Part shown: positions 6,563 through 54,666 of the stretch, piece by piece
Layout of the letters: each line of letters opens with the position of its first letter
Numbering within the stretch: the stretch's first letter is position 1
Source: Candidatus Nomurabacteria bacterium
Lineage (GTDB): Bacteria > Patescibacteriota > Minisyncoccia > Phycocordibacterales > UBA918
DNA: 64,000 nt
Reading direction: 5' to 3'
Assembly: GCA_020632135.1 (NCBI GenBank)
Contig: JACKGC010000001.1
Coordinates: 244,241-308,240 of the forward strand
Translations under genes and position numbers: made by a program
Notes under the pieces: generated by a model
Told to the model about the DNA's origin: nothing
Seen by the model: only the letters and a program-made list of their open reading frames with translations
The model's database searches: none

Positions 6563-6805
6563 ATGGCAAAGCAATGCGACATCACCGGCAAGAAGACCCA
6601 GATCGGAGGCCGATACAGCAACCGCACTCGTGCGACGCAGTTTAATCCTGGTGGCAAAACCAAGCGCCAGCCAAACCTGCAGAAGAAGCGCATCTACGTC
6701 CCTGAGATCGACAAGACGGTGACGGTAAACGTTTCTGCAGCAGCACTGCGCACTATCGCGAAGAACGGTGCGTACGCAACACTGAAGAAAGCTGGACTTA
6801 TCTAA
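6563..6805 (+). CDS. rpmB: 50S ribosomal protein L28
   Basis: MAKQCDITGKKTQIGGRYSNRTRATQ... is typical of L28; 80 aa. Confidence 0.93.
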   Translation: MAKQCDITGKKTQIGGRYSNRTRATQFNPGGKTKRQPNLQKKRIYVPEIDKTVTVNVSAAALRTIAKNGAYATLKKAGLI

Positions 6806-6818
6806 GGTGGAATAACAT

Positions 6819-6849
6819 AAAAGCGCGGCCCTGCGGGCCGCGCTTTTAT
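6819..6849. terminator. Bidirectional terminator
   Basis: aaaagcgcggccc-tgc-gggccgcgctttt, between rpmB and the convergent MBL gene. Confidence 0.65.
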
Positions 6850-7709
6850 TTTTGCCACACTGTTTTTCCGTCCGTTTCAAAGGTGATGGTGCCCTGCGCA
6901 GCCGTGCTCACGATCTCTGCGCCCGCTTCGCGGGCGCGCGTCAGCACACCTTGCTTTGGATGCCCGTACCGATTGTCTTTCCCGGCTGACACTACCGCGT
7001 ATTGTGGCTGTACTGCGGCCAGAAAGGGCGCGCTGGAGGAAGTATCGGAACCGTGGTGGCCGAGTTTGAGGACTTCGCTTTGAAGGCCGGCGCCGAAGGC
7101 GCCGGCCAAATAGTCCTCGATCCCACTCGGCGCGTCGCCAGTGAGCATGAAGGCGATATCACCGTACTGCACTTGCAGGATGATCGATGCTGCGTTATTT
7201 TCCCAATTCGTCGTATCACCTTGCGGCGAAAGAATGCGTACCGTGGTCGACGCACCAAGCCGTATGACCTGCCCCGCTTGGGCGATGATGCGGCGGGCGG
7301 CTTCGCCGCCCGCCGCTCGTTGATACGCAACCGCAGCCGGCGCATCGTGTTCTGCAGCGGTCTCAACGAGTATCCCCACCTCATACCGCTCGAGCACATC
7401 CACCAAGCCCGCCACGTGGTCGGTGTCTGGGTGCGTCGCCACCACCACGTCAATGGATCGATCGAAGAACGAGCGTCCTTTCGCCAACTCACGCAGCACA
7501 CTAGCCGAGGGCCCGCCATCGACCAGCATTTCATACCCATCAGGTGTCATGATGTGAATGGCATCACCTTGCCCCACATCAAGAAAACGCACGGTAAGAA
7601 AACTACCAGCAGGGCCGGCCGCTGTCGCGGCCGGCCACCACACCACCCCCACTGTACAGAGCAGTAACCCAACAATGACTATCCGCGCGCCGATCACTCG
7701 TTCTGACAT
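6846..7709 (-). CDS. MBL-fold metallo-hydrolase, ComEC C-terminal (Lactamase_B) domain-like, membrane-anchored
   Basis: VRFLDVGQGDAIHI...DGG, ATHPDTDHVAG and KLGHHGS motifs resemble the ComEC beta-lactamase domain. N-terminal TM segment. Confidence 0.8.
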   Translation of the reverse strand: MSERVIGARIVIVGLLLCTVGVVWWPAATAAGPAGSFLTVRFLDVGQGDAIHIMTPDGYEMLVDGGPSASVLRELAKGRSFFDRSIDVVVATHPDTDHVAGLVDVLERYEVGILVETAAEHDAPAAVAYQRAAGGEAARRIIAQAGQVIRLGASTTVRILSPQGDTTNWENNAASIILQVQYGDIAFMLTGDAPSGIEDYLAGAFGAGLQSEVLKLGHHGSDTSSSAPFLAAVQPQYAVVSAGKDNRYGHPKQGVLTRAREAGAEIVSTAAQGTITFETDGKTVWQK

Positions 7710-7766: not shown

Positions 7767-8345
7767 ATGAAATACGAACCTCTAACCTTTGACATCCCGG
7801 ACCTCGAAGGGATATCAGCCGACACGATCGAGAACCACCTTGCGCTCTACCAGGGCTACGTGAAGCACGTTAACCTCATTCGCGACAAGATTGCCGCCTA
7901 CAGCAACGACCCAGACAACAACGCCTTTGCCATCTCCGAGATGCAACGCCGCCTGGGCTTTGAGTTTGGTGGTATGCGCAACCACGAGTACTACTTCGCG
8001 CAGTTTGAAGGTGGCGCTAAGGAGCTACCCGATGATTCCCTTAAGCGTAAGCTTGAAGAGCAGTGGGGCTCTGTTGAGAACTGGCTCACGCGCTTTAAGG
8101 AGGTCGCTAAGACCCGCGGTGTAGGCTGGGCAATGCTCTACCATGATCCGCACACCGACCAACTCGTGCAGACTTGGGTGGATGAACAACACATGGGCCA
8201 ACTCGCCGACCTCGACATCGTCCTCGCGCTTGATATGTGGGAGCATTCGTACATGCGTGACTATGTTTCAGCCGATAAGGGCAAATACGTCGAAGCATTC
8301 TTCAAAAACCTCAACTGGGAGGTGGTGTCGGGAAGGTTGGTGTAA
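7767..8345 (+). CDS. Fe/Mn superoxide dismutase
   Basis: C-terminal DMWEHSYMRDY (D-x-W-E-H signature) and overall Fe/Mn SOD layout. Confidence 0.88.
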   Translation: MKYEPLTFDIPDLEGISADTIENHLALYQGYVKHVNLIRDKIAAYSNDPDNNAFAISEMQRRLGFEFGGMRNHEYYFAQFEGGAKELPDDSLKRKLEEQWGSVENWLTRFKEVAKTRGVGWAMLYHDPHTDQLVQTWVDEQHMGQLADLDIVLALDMWEHSYMRDYVSADKGKYVEAFFKNLNWEVVSGRLV

Positions 8346-8350
8346 CAAAA

Positions 8351-8388
8351 AGAAAATCGGCCGGCAGCTTCGCTGCCGGCCGATTTTC
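8351..8388 (+). terminator. Rho-independent-type terminator after SOD
   Basis: gaaaatcggccggcagc-ttcg-ctgccggccgattttc. Confidence 0.65.
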
Positions 8389-8428
8389 TGCCACGTCATT
8401 GCGAGGAGCGACGCGGCAATCCAGAGGT

Positions 8429-8706
8429 TCAGAGCATCTGTGTCAGATCTTGCCACTGTGGATCCTCTGCTTCAATTAAGGCTACCTTCTTCTTTCTTGA
8501 TCCAACTTTGCTCTCAGGATCGCCTGCTCCATCAGGGCGCACACTTCTGCGTAGACAAGAGTGTGTAGGTGGTATTTTTTTGGTAAAGCTATCTGCCGCT
8601 CCTTGAACATGTTTGGTCACCCGTTTTGCAACATTGCTGGTCACGCCAGTGTATGGGTGCCATTGCGTTTGTTAGTTATGCTGTAGACACAGGGTTGTTT
8701 CACCAT
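8429..8706 (-). pseudogene. GIY-YIG nuclease family (UPF0213-like) gene with at least 3 frame changes
   Basis: The pieces lie in different frames: MVKQPCVYSITNKRNG, YTGVTSNVAKRVTKH, FTKKYHLHTLVYAEV and SRKKKVALIEAEDPQWQDL. Together they rebuild a typical GIY-YIG protein. Confidence 0.72.
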
Positions 8707-8866
8707 AGTTACTTGCAGTATACCCTGGATTGCTTCGCTCCACTCCGTTACGCTCGCAAAGACGGCGGACCTTCGGGCCGCCGTCACAATTCTAGGGACT
8801 TACGAGGTCCCTAGATTTAGGCGGCTTTGCCTAGGGTTGCCCTAGGTGGAGCTAGTCTAGGCGGAG

Positions 8867-35730: not shown

Positions 35731-35781
35731 TTCGCTCGTAAGGCTACTGCTCAAGCAAGCTTGGCAGTATCTTACTCGCTC

Positions 35782-35852
35782 GCGGGTGTAGTTTAGTGGT
35801 AAAACGACTGCCTTCCAAGCAGTAGTCGGGGGTTCGATTCCTCTCACCCGCA
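35782..35852 (+). tRNA. tRNA-Gly (anticodon UCC), no encoded CCA
   Basis: Cloverleaf by eye: gcgggtg/cacccgc acceptor, anticodon loop cTTCCaa, T-arm ggggg-ttcgatt-cctct. Confidence 0.9.
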
Positions 35853-35980
35853 CAAAATTTAACTTCGTCAGAATTAAGGCGAGATGACCGCCGCCGCGAA
35901 GCGGCGGCGGGAGGTAGAAAACCCCGTCGCGTAGCGACGAAATGGCTGGGCGAGGGCACGGAAAAGTGGGCGGTTTTGTT
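35850..35980 (+). repeat. 131-bp inverted repeat, left copy (IR-a)
   Basis: Reverse complement of 37402-37532 with 3 mismatches. GC-rich, contains the ccgccgccgc-gaa-gcggcggcgg hairpin. Confidence 0.9.
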
Positions 35981-37365
35981 ACGAACCGAATGGTTCGTTC
36001 CGATTTTTTGGACGAAGTCGGCAATTTCGGAGAAATTGTCAGACGAGGACAAAAAAGCAGCTTGTTTCGTATCCAAAACCCACTCCCGCAAGGGTTCGAC
36101 CCAAGTATTTCCCCGACGTTCAAAATCTTTCTTCTTCTCGTTCAAAGTGGCGAGAGAGCGCATAGTGATGTCTTTTTTCTTAAGATAAATCTCCTTTGGT
36201 ATATCGCCGTCCAAATACGCAGACACCAGTTTTTCCATGCGCTCCTCGTCCGCTTTGATTCTATCGGAAAGATTTTGAACATCACTTTGCGATGAGTTAG
36301 TTTCTTCGTGCTCCCATTCGTCAATTTTCGCCAACATCCAATCAGCATACTCATCGCAAAGTGATGTTGTTTGAAGCCGATCCTTGATTTGTGCAACAAG
36401 GTCTTTTCTTGCACATAGCCTTGCGAGCAAGCGCCGTGCTTTTTGGTACAACGGTAATAGCGATAGATACCGCCATTGCCTTTCGCATGTTGCGCCGTGA
36501 ACATACCACCACACTCACCACAACGGAACAGACCTAAAAATGGAAAATCATGGCGATTTCTTCGCTTCGGCGCACGCGCCTTGCTCGCAAGAACTTTTTG
36601 CACGGCTTCAAACAATGTCGGGGGAAATAATTGGTTCAAATGTGCCGTCAAACCATTCTCCGTTATGGCGCACAAAACCGAGATATGCTCGGTTGCTCAA
36701 CATATGTTTGACGGCACATTTGGCAAGTGGCTTTCCTTTCGAACTGGTAACGCCTAAATCCGCCAAAAACTGCGACAGAGAAACCAGTCCATGAGTACCT
36801 TTCACATACTCCTCAAAAGCGCGCTGCACAATCTTCGCATTCACCTCATGTGGTTCTATCTGCCGAGTGCGTGGATTGTTCACATACCCAAATGGCGCTT
36901 TGGTGAGCCACTCGCCACGTCGCAGTTTTTGGCGGATGCCTCTTTTTACATTCTGCACCAGATTGTCTGAATAGTATTTACTTTGCCCAAAAGCCACTTG
37001 CAACATAAAGAGCCCTTGCGGAGTGGGTTCAAACCAAAGGTCGGAAAGCGCAAAGACACAATTCTCTCGGTGTCTACTGCGTAAATGACGCGCCCGCCGT
37101 CAATGCTATTTCTTGCCAAACGGTCGGGGTGCCACGACAAAATCCCGCTTGCTTCTCCCACCTCAATGCGCGTCATCATTTCATTAAAAATCGGACGACC
37201 GGGTGTCTTTGCGCTTTTCGACTCTTGAAACTCCGCTAGGATTTCAAGATTTTCTTTACGCGCAAACTCTCGCAATTCAAAAAGTTGTGCCTCAATGGAC
37301 ATGACTTGTTTATCATCATCTTCAGTACTCTTGCGAGCGTAGAGAAAATATTTTGGTTTGTTCAT
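35981..37365 (-). pseudogene. Large serine recombinase, disrupted by at least 3 frameshifts (3' end uncertain)
   Basis: Four overlapping frames give MNKPKYFLYARKSTEDDDKQVMSIEAQ (catalytic Ser domain), a recombinase domain (GYVNNPRTRQIEPHE), a zinc ribbon (RCGECGG...YYRCTKK) and a coiled-coil tail. Confidence 0.8.
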
Positions 37366-37401
37366 AATTTTGAAAAAATTATTTTTGGATACGAAACAAG
37401 A

Positions 37402-37532
37402 AACAAATCCGCCCACTTTTCCGTGCCCTCGCCCAGCCATTTCGTCGCTACGCGACGGGGTTTTCTACCTCCCGCCGCCGCGTCGCGGCGGCGGTCATCT
37501 CGCCATAATTCTGACGAAGTTAAATTTTGTGC
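37402..37532 (-). repeat. 131-bp inverted repeat, right copy (IR-a')
   Basis: Pairs with 35850-35980. Its outer 5 nt (tgtgc) are shared with the start of the 570-bp repeat. Confidence 0.9.
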
Positions 37533-38097
37533 AGAAATACTGACCTTTGCTCGAACCCATTTCGAGAAAGGACAATGATCGCAACGCGCGGAGCGCGAGG
37601 TGATGCGGACGCGAAGCGTACGCATTGGAGTCCGTATGCGCCTCGGTCGCGCTCCGCTTCGCTACGCGCGAGCAACCCCAAAAATTTCCTTGCCATTTTT
37701 TGCGGCTCCTCCCCCGACCCCTCCGCCGAAAGGCGAAAAAGAAGAAAGGAAATTTTGGGTTGCGCCGTCGGGTACACATAATTATAAACTATGATGGTAT
37801 ATTCTACAATCGGTTATATTCTATTATTACGGTCATGGCAAACAAATACAGAATTAAATATCAAAAATTCATCCAACAGCTTCGCAAAGCTCGCCTTGAA
37901 GCTGGGTTTACTCAGGTTGATGTTGGCAAGAAGTTAAAGAAGCCACAGGCGTATGTGTCAAAGATTGAACGAGGCGAGCGTAGAGTTGATGTTGTTGAGC
38001 TAGAGGAGTTTGCGAAGCTATACAAAAAAAGACCTCGAATATTTTACAAAATAGCCCATTAATCAGTGTTGGCTGTGGATAACTATTTCTTAAATTT
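37528..38097 (+). repeat. 570-bp inverted repeat, left arm
   Basis: Reverse complement of 40713-41281. The only difference found by eye is A7 versus A6 at about 38025. Confidence 0.9.
37835..38062 (+). CDS. XRE-family HTH regulator (RM controller C-protein-like), copy 1, C-terminus altered by the A7 run
   Basis: MANKYRIKYQKFIQQLRKARLEAGFTQVDVGKKLKKPQAYVSKIERGERRVDVVELEEFAKLYKK, then a frameshifted tail relative to copy 2. Confidence 0.7.
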   Translation: MANKYRIKYQKFIQQLRKARLEAGFTQVDVGKKLKKPQAYVSKIERGERRVDVVELEEFAKLYKKRPRIFYKIAH

Positions 38098-38208
38098 TTT
38101 CATATGCCAAATAAGCTAGAAGAATCTCTCATATTTTGGGAACTTTCAAAATTAATTTTATGTGCTAGAGAGCTTTTCTTTTAGGTCGAGAAATGTTCTA
38201 ATTTAGAT

Positions 38209-40714
38209 ATGAAAGACGGATACATAAAAGATTATTCAACAGATAAGCTGGTCGATCTCCGAAAGCCGGAGGAGATTGTTCGGCAGAATTACGAAAAGGA
38301 GTTGCATGAAGACTACGAATATGCCAAGGAGCAAATGGATATTGAAGTCCCCATACAACGCGGCGAAAAAAACTCAGCCAAAAACAAAAAACGAGCGCGC
38401 TGACATTGTTGTGTACGAAACCACAGACAAAAACAAAAAGAAGTCAGTCGGCTGACATATTGGGTATTGTAGAAACCAAGCGCCCCACTCGAAAAGAAGG
38501 AATCAAGCAATTGATGAGCTACATGACTGCAAGCTCTGCACTTTGGGGAGTTTGGACTAATGGAACTGATATTGAATATCTATTCCGCGACCCCAAAGTG
38601 GCAAAATCAAACAGGATTATATTTTTTCAAATTCCTAAGAATGGAGAAACGTTTGAAGATATTGGGCGAATCTCTAAGAAGAACCTGCAACCTGCCAAGA
38701 GTTTGAAGTCAGTATTCCACCGATTGCTAAATATCTTGTACGCAAATACAAACATCAGCCGTAAAGAAAAACTTGGGGCAGAGATGATTCGTCTCATTTT
38801 CTGTAAAATCATTGACGAGAAATACGACCAAGAAGCTCTGCCGAAGTTTAGGGTTGGTTTTGAAGAAAACCCGAAAGACGTTGCAAAGCGCATCAAAGAA
38901 TTGTTCCAACAAGCAAAAGACGAATTTGGGCATGACGGGGTGTTTGAAAAGAACGAAGAAATTACTCTCGATCCAAAGTCGATTGCTCTTGTAGTCGGGC
39001 AGCTCGAAAAATATAGCCTAATGAAAACTGAAAAAGACGTCGTTGGTGACGCTTTTGAGGTTTTGCTGAAAGCAAACTTGTTGGAGAGAAAGGAGAGTTT
39101 TTACACCAAGGAAATTGTGAAAATGGCAGTAAAGGTTATTGACCCAAAGCCAGAAGAAACAATAGTTGACCCTGCTTGTGGTAGTGGTGGTTTCTTAATT
39201 TTGCACTCGAACATGTTTGGTCTGAAATGAAAAAACAAACCAAATACAGAGGAATGACTGAATCGCAGTTTGATATTGCCAAGAAAAACATGGCAGAGCG
39301 TTGTGTCTTTGGAATTGATAAGGAAAGCGACTTGGTAAAATTGCCAAAGCGTATATGGCGATAATTGGAGACGGTAAAAGTGGTCTGGTCTCAGATAACA
39401 CACTGCACTTACCTGAGGATTACAATCAGAAAGCAAAGGAGCTCTTCGTCGAAGACGAAGAGACAAACACCCTAAAAAGTTTGACATCGTTCTAACCAAT
39501 CCTCCGTTTGGAAGCAAAATTAAGGTTGTAAAAGAAGACTCAAAGCAATTTGATTTAGGACACACTTGGAAAAAGAGGGTGATACTTTTGTAAAACGGAT
39601 AAAGTAAAACCAACCGAACCGCAGGTTCTGTTTGTAGAAGCGTTGTTTAGAAATGTTGAAAGACGGAGGTAAGCTCGCATTGGTATTGCCTGAGACATAT
39701 TTTCATGCACCGTCAGTAAGATACGTGCTTGATTACTTAATCAAAGGAACAATATAACTTCAATTATCGACCTGCCTCATAACACGTTTCGTCCGTATTG
39801 TAATGCAAAAACACTTCTTATTACTCTTGAAAAAGGCGTGCCACAGCAGGAAGAAATTACTATGGCGGTGTGTGAAGAAATGGGACACGACCATAATGGA
39901 CAGCCAATTTATCGTTACGACGAAGATAAAATGAGTTTACTGATGAGATATGGAATGATAGCGATAATATTTTGAAAGAGCTAGACAATCCGTCCGATCC
40001 AAACAATGAGTACGTGTTCAAAGTGAACGTAAACGACATACAAGGAAGTGTTTATGTTCCAAGATATTATTGGAAAAAGCGTATTTCTGACGTAGAAAAG
40101 GAAGCCAAAAAGAGGGTTTGAATTAGTGCCCGTAAAAAATTGATACAAGAAGGAGTCATCAAAAGCTTCTCGGGACATGGTTCTCCAAAATCTCATTTCA
40201 AGGGCGTGGCGAAGTGCCGTATATCCGCGTAGCTGATATCGTAAACTGGGCAGTCTACAAAAACCCGACTGCGTTCATTCCAGAATTTGAATATGAGCGC
40301 GTTAAAGGTAACCAGTTTGATTTGCAAGAAAAGGATGTGCTTTTGTAAGACGTGGTAGTTACCGTATAGGTAGTGTCGCAATCGTCTCAGAATTTGATAC
40401 GGATGTTCTTTTAACAAAGAGATACAAACTTTCCGTGTCGTTGATGAGGATAATAAATACGGCATTGATGCGTTCTATTTGCTTTATTTATTCTCACACA
40501 TTCTTACTCAAAAGCAGTTGTACGGAAAGATTTTGATTGATACGACATTGCCAAATATTGGTGACCGTTGGAAAGAGCTCAAACTACCTATTGCAAAAGA
40601 TCCAAAAAGGTTGAACAGATGAAAACTCAACTGCGAAATGTGTTTGAGAAAAAATGGGAAGGTCAAAAAGGAATTGAGGCACTAACTAAAGAATACGGAA
40701 GATTCACTACTTAA
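38209..40714 (+). pseudogene. Type IIG-like restriction-modification fusion (PD-(D/E)XK HsdR_N-like nuclease + N6-adenine methylase + TRD), many frameshifts and stops
   Basis: Fragments: ADIVVYE...GIVETKRP; methylase motif I DPACGSGGFLI; motif IV DIVLTNPPFGSKI; HsdS-like TRD (VPYIRVADIVNW...RRGSYRIGSVAIV). At least 10 frame breaks. About 38% GC. Confidence 0.75.
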
Positions 40715-41281
40715 ATTTAAGAAATAGTTATCCACAGCCAACACTGATTAATGGGCTATTTTGTAAAATATTCGAGGTCTTTTTTGTATAGCTTCGCAAA
40801 CTCCTCTAGCTCAACAACATCAACTCTACGCTCGCCTCGTTCAATCTTTGACACATACGCCTGTGGCTTCTTTAACTTCTTGCCAACATCAACCTGAGTA
40901 AACCCAGCTTCAAGGCGAGCTTTGCGAAGCTGTTGGATGAATTTTTGATATTTAATTCTGTATTTGTTTGCCATGACCGTAATAATAGAATATAACCGAT
41001 TGTAGAATATACCATCATAGTTTATAATTATGTGTACCCGACGGCGCAACCCAAAATTTCCTTTCTTCTTTTTCGCCTTTCGGCGGAGGGGTCGGGGGAG
41101 GAGCCGCAAAAAATGGCAAGGAAATTTTTGGGGTTGCTCGCGCGTAGCGAAGCGGAGCGCGACCGAGGCGCATACGGACTCCAATGCGTACGCTTCGCGT
41201 CCGCATCACCTCGCGCTCCGCGCGTTGCGATCATTGTCCTTTCTCGAAATGGGTTCGAGCAAAGGTCAGTATTTCTGCACA
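40713..41281 (-). repeat. 569-bp inverted repeat, right arm
   Basis: Pairs with 37528-38097 and ends in GCACA at the island edge. Confidence 0.9.
40756..40974 (-). CDS. XRE-family HTH regulator (C-protein-like), copy 2 (72 aa, probably the intact version)
   Basis: Same sequence as copy 1 up to ...EFAKLYKK, then DLEYFTK. Confidence 0.75.
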   Translation of the reverse strand: MANKYRIKYQKFIQQLRKARLEAGFTQVDVGKKLKKPQAYVSKIERGERRVDVVELEEFAKLYKKDLEYFTK

Positions 41282-41502
41282 GCCAACATGAAAAGTCGTC
41301 CCGAAAGGGATGGCTTTTCTGTTGCTGCGGTGCGGAGTGAAGAAAGTGCCTTGAGGCACTTTCGTGAGGAATCGAACGCCGGAATGATGTGAGGAGTTTA
41401 CGACGAACGAATGAGGCGTGTCCCGCGGCACCTGCTAATTTATGAGGTACGAAATAAATTAGGTTGGTGACCGTCAGGACGATTCCTCTCACCCGCACAA
41501 AA
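41282..41502 (+). other. tRNA-linked element A: terminator hairpin + hairpin + 63-nt conserved core + hairpin + copy of the tRNA-Gly(UCC) 3' 18 nt
   Basis: cgattcctctcacccgca(caaaa) at 41480-41502 duplicates 35835-35857. Core 41369-41431 is 55/63 identical to 54465-54527. Confidence 0.6.
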
Positions 41503-41731
41503 CGTTAAGAAGAACAGTCCCTGCGGACTGTTTTTTAGTTTTGTGAAGCGGAGCCATGTTTTCTGCGCCTTTCCTAGCGCAGAAAACAGGCGAGCTGGGG
41601 CAGCAGGTACTTAGTGCTCACAGCTAGCGAAGCTAGTGAAAACACTTAGTAACCTGCGCCTGACATGGCCTTATCTAACCGCGAACAAAATAGTGATGCG
41701 AAGGTGACCGATTCCTCTCACCCGCACAAAA
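41503..41731 (+). other. tRNA-linked element E: second tandem unit ending in another copy of the tRNA-Gly(UCC) 3' end
   Basis: Terminator at 41508-41536. Hairpin 41558-41587 with loop ctttccta. cgattcctctcacccgca(caaaa) at 41709-41731. Confidence 0.55.
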
Positions 41732-54310: not shown

Positions 54311-54381
54311 CGGGGTGTAGCATAATGGTAGTGTACACGGTTTGGGACCGTGCGGCCCGGGTTCGATTCCCGGCTCCCCGA
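54311..54381 (+). tRNA. tRNA-Pro (anticodon UGG), no encoded CCA
   Basis: cggggtg/ctccccg acceptor, anticodon loop tTTGGGa, T-arm ccggg-ttcgatt-cccgg. Confidence 0.9.
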
Positions 54382-54597
54382 CAAAATGTAATAAGTCCTG
54401 GCTTTTTGCCAGGACTTATTACATTTGGAGCGGGAGAGCAAGCAAACAGTTTTGCTTGCATCGGGGATCAAACGCCGGAACAATGTGAGGAATTTATGAC
54501 GAACGAGTGAGGCGTGCCCCGCGGCACTACGTATCTTTGCAAATACTTGGAGCAAAGTACGTTAGTGACTGTCAGGACGATTCCCGGCTCTCCGACA
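54382..54597 (+). other. tRNA-linked element B: terminator hairpin + hairpin + conserved core + hairpin + copy of the tRNA-Pro 3' 18 nt
   Basis: cgattcccggctctccga(ca) at 54578-54597 (1 mismatch to the tRNA). Core at 54465-54527. A terminator follows at about 54600-54635. Confidence 0.6.
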
Positions 54598-54666
54598 TCG
54601 CTAGAAAGGCGCCAGCATAGCTGGCGCTTTTTGTAGTTTGTATCCGATCATAACTACAATTTATGC

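Follow-up and report, generated by a model that had tools for sequence, protein, structure and literature searches.

Why would an integrated genetic element carry in its interior, and in reverse, a copy of its own two joined ends? This question is raised by positions 35850-41281 of a 64,000-nucleotide (nt) stretch of the genome of a Candidatus Nomurabacteria bacterium (GenBank assembly GCA_020632135.1, contig JACKGC010000001.1, positions 244,241 to 308,240 of the forward strand), hereafter the window, in which a broken serine recombinase gene and the remnant of a restriction-modification (RM) gene lie beside tRNA-Gly(UCC), each of them bracketed by a long inverted repeat (IR). By comparing this locus with its relatives, we identified it as one dead member of a very large family of small integrative elements in Patescibacteria (the candidate phyla radiation, CPR). 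Judged from the sequences of the family members, the layout of three sites, i.e. a left attachment site (attL, S1), an inverted internal site of the attP type (S2) and a right attachment site (attR, S3), together with two IR pairs, is a built-in design of the family. As an overall explanation, to which we give a rough probability of 0.55, we propose that S2 is a resident regulatory site that is bound by the recombinase and may, on rare occasions, recombine.

The three sites are defined by their junctions. S1 reads ...CTCTCACCC GCACA AAATTTAACTTCGTCAG, S3 reads GGTCAGTATTTCT GCACA GCCAACATG, and the minus strand of S2 reads GGTCAGTATTTCT GCACA AAATTTAACTTCGTCAG, which amounts to the right end, the core and the left end joined to one another in inverted orientation, as a first-pass annotation of the window had described. 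The junction sequences and repeat coordinates given in that annotation were all confirmed base for base, and its broader description also stood: the locus is indeed an island that a serine recombinase, more precisely a large serine recombinase (LSR), built at the 3' end of tRNA-Gly(UCC), the island ends are hybrid sites of the attL/attR type according to both the junction sequences and the family alignments, and the internal site does give rise to two IR pairs, around the recombinase gene and the RM remnant, respectively. IR-A pairs two arms of 131 nt (distal arm A and proximal arm A') with 3 mismatches (at 35877, 35900 and 35974), whereas IR-B pairs 570 with 569 nt, with 0 mismatches and a single indel, of 1 nt, in the A-run near 38024; the two IRs share TGTGC at 37528-37532. 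Repeats of 131 and 570 nt with 98-100% identity are far above chance expectation. IR-A is bipartite, since an additional 18-nt complement joins 37383-37400 to 36061-36078, with an 80-nt bulge on the 3' side of the recombinase gene. Coordinates of all features are collected in Table 1.

The frame-corrected recombinase of the window carries the Pfam domains PF00239, PF07508 and PF13408 and is, among the matches listed, closest to an intact protein (P0001, 92% identity). Alignment with the intact genes of three related loci (L001, L012 and L013) located three 1-nt indels, at ~37039, ~36624 and ~36407, that break the window gene, and no nonsense codon; the RM gene is split into at least nine open reading frame (ORF) fragments. 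Sequencing error was considered as the source of the frameshifts and ruled out, because the host genes are intact across the 64-kb window (ORFs of up to 661 amino acids (aa), 80% coding density) despite approximately 200 homopolymer runs of at least 5 nt, so that the decay is genuine and confined to the island. Recombinases of the family are 510-530 aa long, and the closest solved structures, SPbeta SprA (9dxh) and A118 integrase (4kis), are distant (E 6e-17 in a search of the PDB). Among 8000 candidates, 6384 related protein clusters were scored, the top 120 listed all having at least 68% identity, and the organism names attached to related clusters, where given, are almost always those of Patescibacteria, to which the family is confined as far as we have seen. 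All copies are chromosomal and lie at tRNA genes, with cargo that includes RM genes, toxin-antitoxin-like genes, regulators and genes of no known type. A phage or plasmid origin was rejected, since no relatives were found in viral contigs and the plasmid matches were below 30% identity. The ORF list for 35850-41731 contains no tyrosine integrase. No gene could be assigned as a candidate directionality factor in the family, some elements (e.g. L005) having a single cargo ORF.

To see the layout beyond the window, one genome per species was scanned, which gave 80 loci, and the counts were made by script. In 63 of the 70 loci that have the relevant flank, the tRNA gene is convergent with the recombinase gene and abuts its 3' end. 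Targets in this species set are tRNA-Ser (four anticodons), tRNA-Glu (two), tRNA-Arg (five), tRNA-Gly, tRNA-Leu, tRNA-Ala and tRNA-Val, and tRNA-Ile is the target in four loci from outside the set (L001-L004). Where both sides are on the contig, IR-A measures at least 100 nt in 55 of 60 loci, 50 of these being at least 95% identical, and the commonest alignment length in the species loci is exactly 131 nt. Both B arms are on the contig, with the proximal one abutting A', in 22 distinct elements. The B arms of clade 1 are 164-273 nt long and mostly 98-100% identical, with more diverged arms in two elements (L006, 80%; L092, 97%). The closest intact relatives follow this plan: L001, at tRNA-Ile, has an IR-A of 149 nt; L005, at tRNA-Arg, combines an IR-A of 131 nt (100% identity) and an IR-B of 257 nt with its single-ORF cargo; and L006 has an IR-A of 131 nt. 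A second LSR clade, ~40% identical, shares the design, its IR-A measuring 120 nt and its IR-B 235-434 nt in the L055 and L040 arrays, and the 434-nt B arms being those of one clade-2 element. Tandem arrays of up to three LSR elements at one tRNA gene, which mix the two clades (~68% and ~40% identity to P0001), were seen in L055 (3058-14316), L040 (7567-17834), L120 and L121; in L040, one element is inserted in the P-arm site (attR) of another.

These relatives decide one question outright. The first-pass annotation had suggested a single rearrangement between a circular and an integrated copy, and both this scenario and an assembly artefact would suit the local anatomy taken alone, as well as the decay of the window copy. 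The prospect that either is correct is practically negligible, and the comparative data have already refuted it: the same layout is present in intact relatives of dozens of species, including a complete chromosome (CP060229.1; L013 and L024) and contigs of more than 600 kb, the second LSR clade shares the two-copy arms, and the junction logic is exact in the 46 S1/S2 pairs that could be compared. An intact relative with single arms had been named as the finding that would count against the annotation; when the relatives were checked, the opposite was found, in that intact relatives carry doubled arms. The remark that the island has no standard layout holds for islands generally and fails within the island's own family, where this layout is the standard one. 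In 33 of the 80 loci (L012-L091, metagenome-assembled genomes), the contig breaks off no more than 330 nt upstream of the recombinase gene, in many cases inside A', as can be explained by the repeats themselves, since repeats of this kind would cause such breaks. Full-text searches of the literature found no description of the family or of its three-site layout; one paper that names Saccharibacteria alongside serine recombinases deals with tyrosine-recombinase hsdS invertons.

The logic of the sites was read from alignments of 73 S1, 69 S2 and 22 S3 family sites, an alignment of the B arms, and, for motif spacing, the 46 S1/S2 pairs. Crossover falls in the last 4-5 nt of the tRNA gene, here GCAC(A), and leaves the tRNA intact. 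The core, i.e. the 4-5 nt to the left of the crossover, covaries with the 3' end of the resident tRNA (CCGCA for Ser; TCACA for Glu; GCACA for Arg, Gly, Ile and Leu; CCACA for Ala). On one side of the core stands a conserved P half-site, CTCGAAATGGGTTCG(A/C)GCAAAGG..TC.C followed by the core, which is invariant in the B-arm alignment; on the other, the P' half-site consists of the core, ~8 nt and ACTTC, after which variable hairpins follow. The flank side of S3 is unconserved among the 22 S3 sites, and the ends of the LSR element have only GCACA in common, with 4-5 nt shared with the tRNA. The motif GTTCG, which in tRNA is the universal T-loop, is separated from the identity block by 18 nt in the tRNA (39 of the 46 pairs) and by 24 nt in the P arm (37 pairs), and the difference in spacing, P arm minus tRNA, is exactly 6 nt in 41 pairs. 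In structures of A118 integrase, the half-sites of attB and attP are reportedly shifted against each other by about half a helical turn (about 5 bp) where the zinc-ribbon domain makes its contact; the 6-nt offset matches this shift, and by analogy GTTCG may be the contact of that domain. From the half-sites, the core and the spacing it follows that S1 is attL, S3 is attR and S2 is a complete site of the attP type. We hold with high confidence that this is the canonical architecture of the family and that S1 and S3 are the attL and attR of an LSR.

By its enzyme and its attachment-site logic, the element is thus an LSR integrative element, comparable to the phage and element integrases A118/LI, SPbeta SprA, phiC31, Bxb1 and TP901-1, with which it shares Resolvase and Recombinase domains and a zinc ribbon with a coiled-coil region, hybrid attL and attR sites around a very short core, and motifs whose position differs between attP and attB by roughly half a helical turn (6 nt in this family). 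It departs from them by the internal second site: where LSR elements have a single attP, a complete attP-type site is found inside the window element and inside nearly all of its relatives, inverted and flanked by long arms. Also unlike those integrases, the family targets the extreme 3' end of many tRNA genes, including the universal T-loop, with a far attB half that is unconserved, and it reuses occupied sites, which leads to tandem arrays, while a directionality factor is not evident. Tyrosine-integrase islands of the kind found by Islander and TIGER likewise insert at tRNA 3' ends with preservation of the tRNA and stack serially at one tRNA, but they leave direct repeats made of tens of nt of the tRNA, whereas the LSR element has 4-5 nt in common with it; the 23-nt repeats of the tRNA end that are present in the window belong to adjacent miniature units (see below) and not to the LSR element.

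Inverted sites that share a core are what serine invertases use, and the first-pass annotation had considered inversion of either module by the recombinase. In the strongest form of this idea, the recombinase would routinely flip its own module and/or the RM cargo to switch expression, as in a shufflon or other phase-variation system. Two sets of loci are in its favor. L003 is 100% identical to L001 except for a 6-kb cargo block that is reversed, so that L001, L002 and L004 differ from L003 by a flipped cargo only; and in L041 the 3' end of tRNA-Glu runs through arm A directly into the start codon of the recombinase gene, a flipped state whose pattern matched L041 alone among 106 loci, together with 19 metagenome contigs, of which 17 were verified as flipped. 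The family as a whole points the other way. The recombinase module is flipped in 1 of the 80 species loci and convergent with the tRNA in all others; a homolog of the helix-turn-helix (HTH) gene of the window, where present, lies 65-178 nt inside the proximal arm and is divergent from the recombinase gene in 8 of 8 complete elements, which speaks against inversion of the RM module; and independent assemblies agree on orientation for two elements (5 of 5 and 2 of 2). The pair L001 and L003 was rejected as proof of site-specific cargo inversion: the proximal arm of L003 keeps the proximal variant of the single arm mismatch that serves as a marker, which places the switch away from the core, among the ~110 identical nt of the inner arm. 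Moreover, a cargo flip changes nothing at the cargo ends, because both ends are identical, the elements contain no partial gene copies like those of hsdS invertons, and the recombinase, being an LSR, is no small invertase. No demonstration of inversion was thus obtained for either module, and we regard a freely operating switch as very improbable. The sequences compared indicate that orientation is essentially fixed and that inversion, if any, is rare or strongly biased.

With invertible systems of the Hin type the element has only its geometry in common. Hin, Gin, Cin, Pin and Min also use inverted sites with a shared core to bracket a segment, and the Hin gene lies inside its own invertible segment, but these enzymes are of ~190 aa, act at 26-bp sites with an enhancer and Fis, a requirement not expected of an LSR, and commonly leave both orientations in a population, whereas here an LSR is combined with arms of 131-570 nt and an orientation that is essentially fixed. 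In place of a protein of ~190 aa with a C-terminal HTH, the family has one of 510-530 aa with LSR domains. In type I RM epigenetic invertons the IRs lie within alternative hsdS segments; here they flank the RM gene instead, of which the element has no second, partial copy, and an RM phase-variation inverton was rejected on these grounds.

Several observations on flipped loci are recorded here in their own right. In L041, at ~2080-2330, the 5' part of tRNA-Glu(CTC) and ~20 nt upstream of it are duplicated ~160 nt apart, 5' of the flipped recombinase module. The flipped metagenome contigs L114, L121 and L124 form one recombinase sub-clade (63-66% identity to P0001; tRNA-Ala(GGC) and tRNA-Val(CAC); core CCACC), for which the co-directional orientation might be the fixed state and not a minority one. 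In L125 (Ga0136558_1002236), positions 8689-8765 contain a tRNA-Gly(UCC) 3' half that is 100% identical over 77 nt to window positions 35781-35857; it is followed by a different variant of the element, flipped, with P' AAAAAAGGACTTCGG and a recombinase fragment 92% identical to P0001, in a host flank otherwise unrelated to the window.

If S2 does not serve a routine switch, its surroundings may tell what it does serve, and these look like a transcribed leader. Within the first 150 nt of unique cargo sequence, sigma-70-like boxes directed toward the recombinase gene are found in 14 of 23 elements, against 4.5 expected from shuffled sequences, and in 8 of these 14 the -35 hexamer lies -37 to -48 nt from the arm edge (in 7 as the top site; the eighth, L040, also has one at -33); a consensus scan of the same 23 elements found no promoter-like boxes inside the B arm. 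Because the boxes lie just upstream of it, the B arm, S2 and A' probably form a leader of ~400 nt in the recombinase mRNA. Close to the start codon, the 18-nt element CTTGTTTCGTATCYAAAA (37383-37400) is complementary to the codons for (V/I)LDTKQ near the end of the gene, and complementarity over at least 12 nt exists in 39 of 69 distinct elements, at 4-40 nt from the ATG, with variants matched on both sides in L006, L021, L038, L043, L045 and L061. At the inner edge of the distal arm, within the 80-nt bulge, stands a hairpin (ACGAACC-N4-GGTTCGT and a T-run, read on the tRNA strand) that A' lacks and that 38 of 39 distinct elements contain; its stem is invariant despite being in coding sequence, and four variant stem positions are compatible with G.U pairing on the tRNA strand only. 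It is likely a terminator of tRNA read-through. Since the stem is a palindrome of the GGTTCG motif, it may alternatively be a protein-binding site. In the window the perfect GGTTCGT palindrome (35981-35998), which shares its hexamer with the T-loop and the P-arm motif, lies ~137 nt from the crossover, beside the end junction but not beside S2, and an accessory recombinase-binding site in this position could tell two otherwise identical junctions apart.

These leader features are also the main attraction of an explanation in terms of RNA alone, in which A' and the 18-nt element would block translation initiation by pairing with the 3' coding end of their own mRNA, S2 being a by-product; in the integrated state, read-through from the tRNA gene would yield an RNA of ~150 nt, antisense to the 3' end of the gene and of the same sequence as the leader segment, that tunes or silences the recombinase. 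The position of the 18-nt complement near the ATG and its matched variants fit this well, as do the placement of the conserved terminator exactly at the arm edge with stem variants that suit the antisense strand only, the start of the B arm at about the point where transcription would begin, hairpins in the arms with loops that by eye resemble GNRA or UUCG, and the fact that in diverged elements the innermost 40 nt of the non-coding A' still resemble the coding arm. Yet IR-B is left unexplained, its two copies being read in the same sense in different transcripts and therefore unable to pair; S2 retains P, P' and the core even in elements whose arms have diverged; the middle of the arms is free to diverge; and the arms match no known RNA family (no Rfam match was found). 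We consider this explanation unlikely. Two candidate coding features were set aside as well. ORFs of 143-147 aa called across S2 in L001 and L005 do not represent a conserved gene, as no frame is open over at least 300 nt in more than 9 of 66 elements, and selection for the recombinase frame that runs through the crossover is weakly supported: 33 of 34 elements have this frame open, yet in the same GC-rich DNA other frames, too, are open in 22-30 of 34.

How the arms diverge, where they do, bears on whether they are maintained for a purpose. In 13 elements with arms 68-97% identical, the mismatch rate is 5% in the 20 nt next to the core, ~13% at positions 20-89 and 3-11% in the innermost part, with the caveat that the local alignments have an edge bias at the first few positions. 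This uneven spread suggests that the tips at S2 and the inner arm are under direct selection while the hairpin-rich middle drifts; for the B arm just four diverged elements qualified, too few for the profile to inform. An ancient duplication of the attP region in inverted orientation, which occurred once and has since been homogenised by gene conversion without any present function, would account for arms that are mostly 98-100% identical within an element and different between elements, as is the signature of gene conversion, and for the toleration of diverged arms by some elements. It would also account for the growth of the window IR to 570 nt, as happens to converting repeats. Each 570-nt B arm of the window holds a 75-aa HTH_3 gene, and the two copies differ by the 1-nt A-run indel only, with C-termini ..LYKKRPRIFYKIAH and ..LYKKDLEYFTK; in relatives the HTH gene is single and lies outside the repeat, which argues that the window IR-B has grown by ~320 nt. 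A functionless legacy is nevertheless distinctly unlikely, given that the boundaries are conserved in 55 of 60 species loci and in the ~40%-identical clade, in very compact genomes, that the arm edges coincide with the terminator, the likely start of transcription and the start codon, and that the mismatches are not uniform along diverged arms.

The explanation that we prefer draws on the attP-type site and on the leader together. We propose that the promoter of the recombinase gene lies just inside the cargo, beside the divergent HTH regulator, and that S2, placed between promoter and start codon, is a resident attP-type site that would be bound by the recombinase and thereby throttle its own gene. 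Occasionally, recombination of S2 with attL would flip the recombinase module; such a reaction could take place because the occupied tRNA end keeps a tRNA-type half-site and the tandem arrays show that occupied sites are reused. In the usual orientation, read-through from the tRNA gene would be antisense to the recombinase gene and would be stopped by the terminator at the arm edge, whereas in the flipped orientation the gene would come to lie right behind the tRNA promoter with no terminator between them, resulting in a rare and self-reversing burst of recombinase, with which flipped forms at ~1% would be consistent. For two copies of the site to be held stably around an essential gene, they would have to be inverted. 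Gene conversion would keep the arms alike and would explain how the window IR-B grew, with direct selection acting on the tips and the innermost part. This specific role for S2 is put forward tentatively, at somewhat less than even odds. A recombinase site between promoter and gene is also found in res of Tn3 and gamma-delta, and comparably in insertion sequences that have the transposase promoter in a terminal repeat; the likeness is one of working principle, and autoregulation is here our inference. Unlike the single attP-type site of this family, which is inverted relative to the element ends, res has three subsites and acts as a direct repeat between two transposon copies in cointegrate resolution.

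A number of points weigh against this proposal. To our knowledge, canonical LSRs (phiC31, Bxb1) without a directionality factor recombine attP with attB only, and a reaction of attL with attP would be a departure from this. A binding site needs ~50-70 nt, which leaves arms of 131 plus 18 nt and of ~250 nt with conserved boundaries unexplained, and the model gives no reason for the duplication of the B arm. A circle with two identical junctions should integrate both ways, and the bias of ~70:1 therefore calls for an extra assumption, for which selection against the flipped state, or the palindrome beside one junction only, are candidates. As for the flipped forms themselves, every flipped contig that reaches the recombinase gene stops inside the gene or at the far arm, and none reaches S2 or the cargo, so that an assembly path induced by the IR explains them equally well; the flipped-cargo contig (L003) switches away from the core. 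The promoter calls are purely consensus matches, and the window candidate has a weak -35 box and falls below the threshold of a second tool. Finally, elements exist in which an intact recombinase is accompanied by diverged arms (L013, ~77-80% depending on the method; L022, ~83%; L059, 68%).

Some of these difficulties would be met if the arms acted on single-stranded DNA. In any single strand that spans the element, such as one imported during transformation, pairing of A with A' and of B with B' could align the element ends on S2 as on a splint, whereupon host flap nucleases and ligase would make a precise circle with no need for excision by the recombinase; the design would be adapted to natural transformation as the route of spread among bacteria without conjugation. 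One idea would thus cover the inverted orientation, the long arms, both arm pairs, and identity within elements despite divergence between them. Patescibacteria are naturally competent, the family is chromosomal and without phage or plasmid relatives, and a directionality-factor gene is not evident in elements with single-ORF cargo such as L005, all of which can be counted in its favor. If true, the family would be the first known example of a mobile element whose design serves transfer by transformation, in a phylum without conjugation. It is, however, highly unlikely: it is without precedent, its circle would still have two identical junctions and hence predict both orientations where ~1 in 70 is flipped, elements with an intact recombinase and arms 68-84% identical exist, and it has no use for the terminator, the 18-nt element or the alignment of an arm boundary with the promoter. 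The geometry of a circle in which a recombinase segment and a cargo segment are separated by target-bearing IRs is shared with the yeast 2-micron plasmid (FLP/FRT, 599-bp IRs), if an excised circle of our element is hypothesized; unlike the element, which is integrated and has no replication genes or plasmid or viral relatives, the 2-micron plasmid is an autonomous replicon with a tyrosine recombinase that uses inversion for copy-number amplification.

Table 1. Features of the tRNA-Gly(UCC) locus, in positions of the window.
Feature	Position	Strand	Description
tRNA-Gly(UCC), integration target	35782-35853	+	Called by ARAGORN and Rfam; last nucleotides GCAC are the crossover core
S1, attL	35826-35875	+	tRNA T-arm/acceptor half (GGTTCGATTCC...GCAC), core and element half-site P' (AAAATTTAACTTC...)
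IR-A, distal arm (A)	35850-35980		Core, P' half-site, variable hairpins and last ~43 recombinase codons
Conserved hairpin ACGAACC-GAAT-GGTTCGT and T-run	35981-36008	+ (tRNA strand)	Begins exactly at the inner edge of arm A; terminator scan
LSR pseudogene (Resolvase, Recombinase, Zn-ribbon)	35850-37366	-	Pfam; frame crosses arm A up to the crossover
Coding segment (V/I)LDTKQ	36061-36078		Exact complement of 37383-37400 upstream of the recombinase start codon
18-nt element CTTGTTTCGTATCCAAAA (recombinase-strand reading)	37383-37400		17 nt 5' of the recombinase ATG; second part of IR-A
IR-A, proximal arm (A')	37402-37532		Immediately 5' of the recombinase gene
S2, internal attP-type site	37505-37577	-	P half-site (..CTCGAAATGGGTTCGAGCAAAGGTCAGTATTTCT), GCACA and P'
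IR-B, proximal arm	37528-38097		Outer ~250 nt are the family-conserved B arm; the rest is promoter region and HTH gene
Candidate recombinase promoter TTGTAG-17-TATAAT	37782-37810	-	Consensus scan; reads through B arm, S2 and A' into the gene
HTH gene, proximal copy	37838-38062	+	Inside the proximal arm of IR-B
Fused RM gene remnant (HSDR_N-like and N6 methyltransferase)	38209-40714	+	ORF list; Pfam on the largest fragment
IR-B, distal arm	40713-41281		Carries HTH copy 2 (40756-40980, -)
S3, attR	41237-41300	+	P half-site, GCACA and non-element DNA
Two ~200-nt miniature units, outside the LSR element	41282-41502, 41503-41731	+	Repeat comparison

Beyond S3, the native tRNA trailer does not resume at once, as had been assumed; two miniature units of ~200 nt follow instead, and the order at the locus is tRNA, LSR element, unit 1, unit 2 and native DNA. 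Each unit opens with a hairpin and ends with ..GTCAGGA/..GTGAC and an exact 23-nt copy, beginning within the T-loop, of the 3' end of tRNA-Gly (CGATTCCTCTCACCCGCACAAAA, at 41480-41502 and 41709-41731). An analogous unit stands after tRNA-Pro (54311-54382) at ~54383-54600, 41368-41486 and 54464-54584 being 79% identical, and the same unit layout was seen past S3 in L019 (~6590-6960), L055 (~8277-8453) and L067; in L055 the attL of the inner element uses the tRNA-end copy of such a unit. Members of this unit family have a terminator-like hairpin right after the tRNA-type end, a conserved core of ~120 nt (..AAACGCCGGAA..GACGAACGA.TGAGGCGTG.CCCGCGGCAC..GTGAC.GTCAGGA), and at their end a 15-23-nt copy of the 3' end of the resident tRNA; no Rfam match was found for them. 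From their sequences, they look like a second, non-autonomous family of insertions at tRNA tips, or like a small RNA gene that duplicates the tRNA tip. A stretch of 121 nt in unit 2 (41540-41660) is 90% identical to L013 12278-12397, beside tRNA-Phe in the complete Nomurabacteria chromosome CP060229.1, which suggests a conserved small non-coding element common to these genomes.

Taken together, the locus exposes a very abundant family of integrative elements, represented in classes across the Patescibacteria by thousands of protein clusters with 65-92% identity, that share a conserved three-site design at the tips of tRNA genes. These elements look like a main vehicle of RM genes and other small cargo in the CPR, and contigs of metagenome-assembled Patescibacteria genomes seem to break at them frequently. 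An integrase that reads the universal T-loop together with a programmable core of 4-5 nt could offer natural landing sites in almost any genome. If S2 is functional, the family breaks the one-attP rule of serine integrases, and it may reveal a new way in which such enzymes are regulated, or given direction, without a separate directionality factor.

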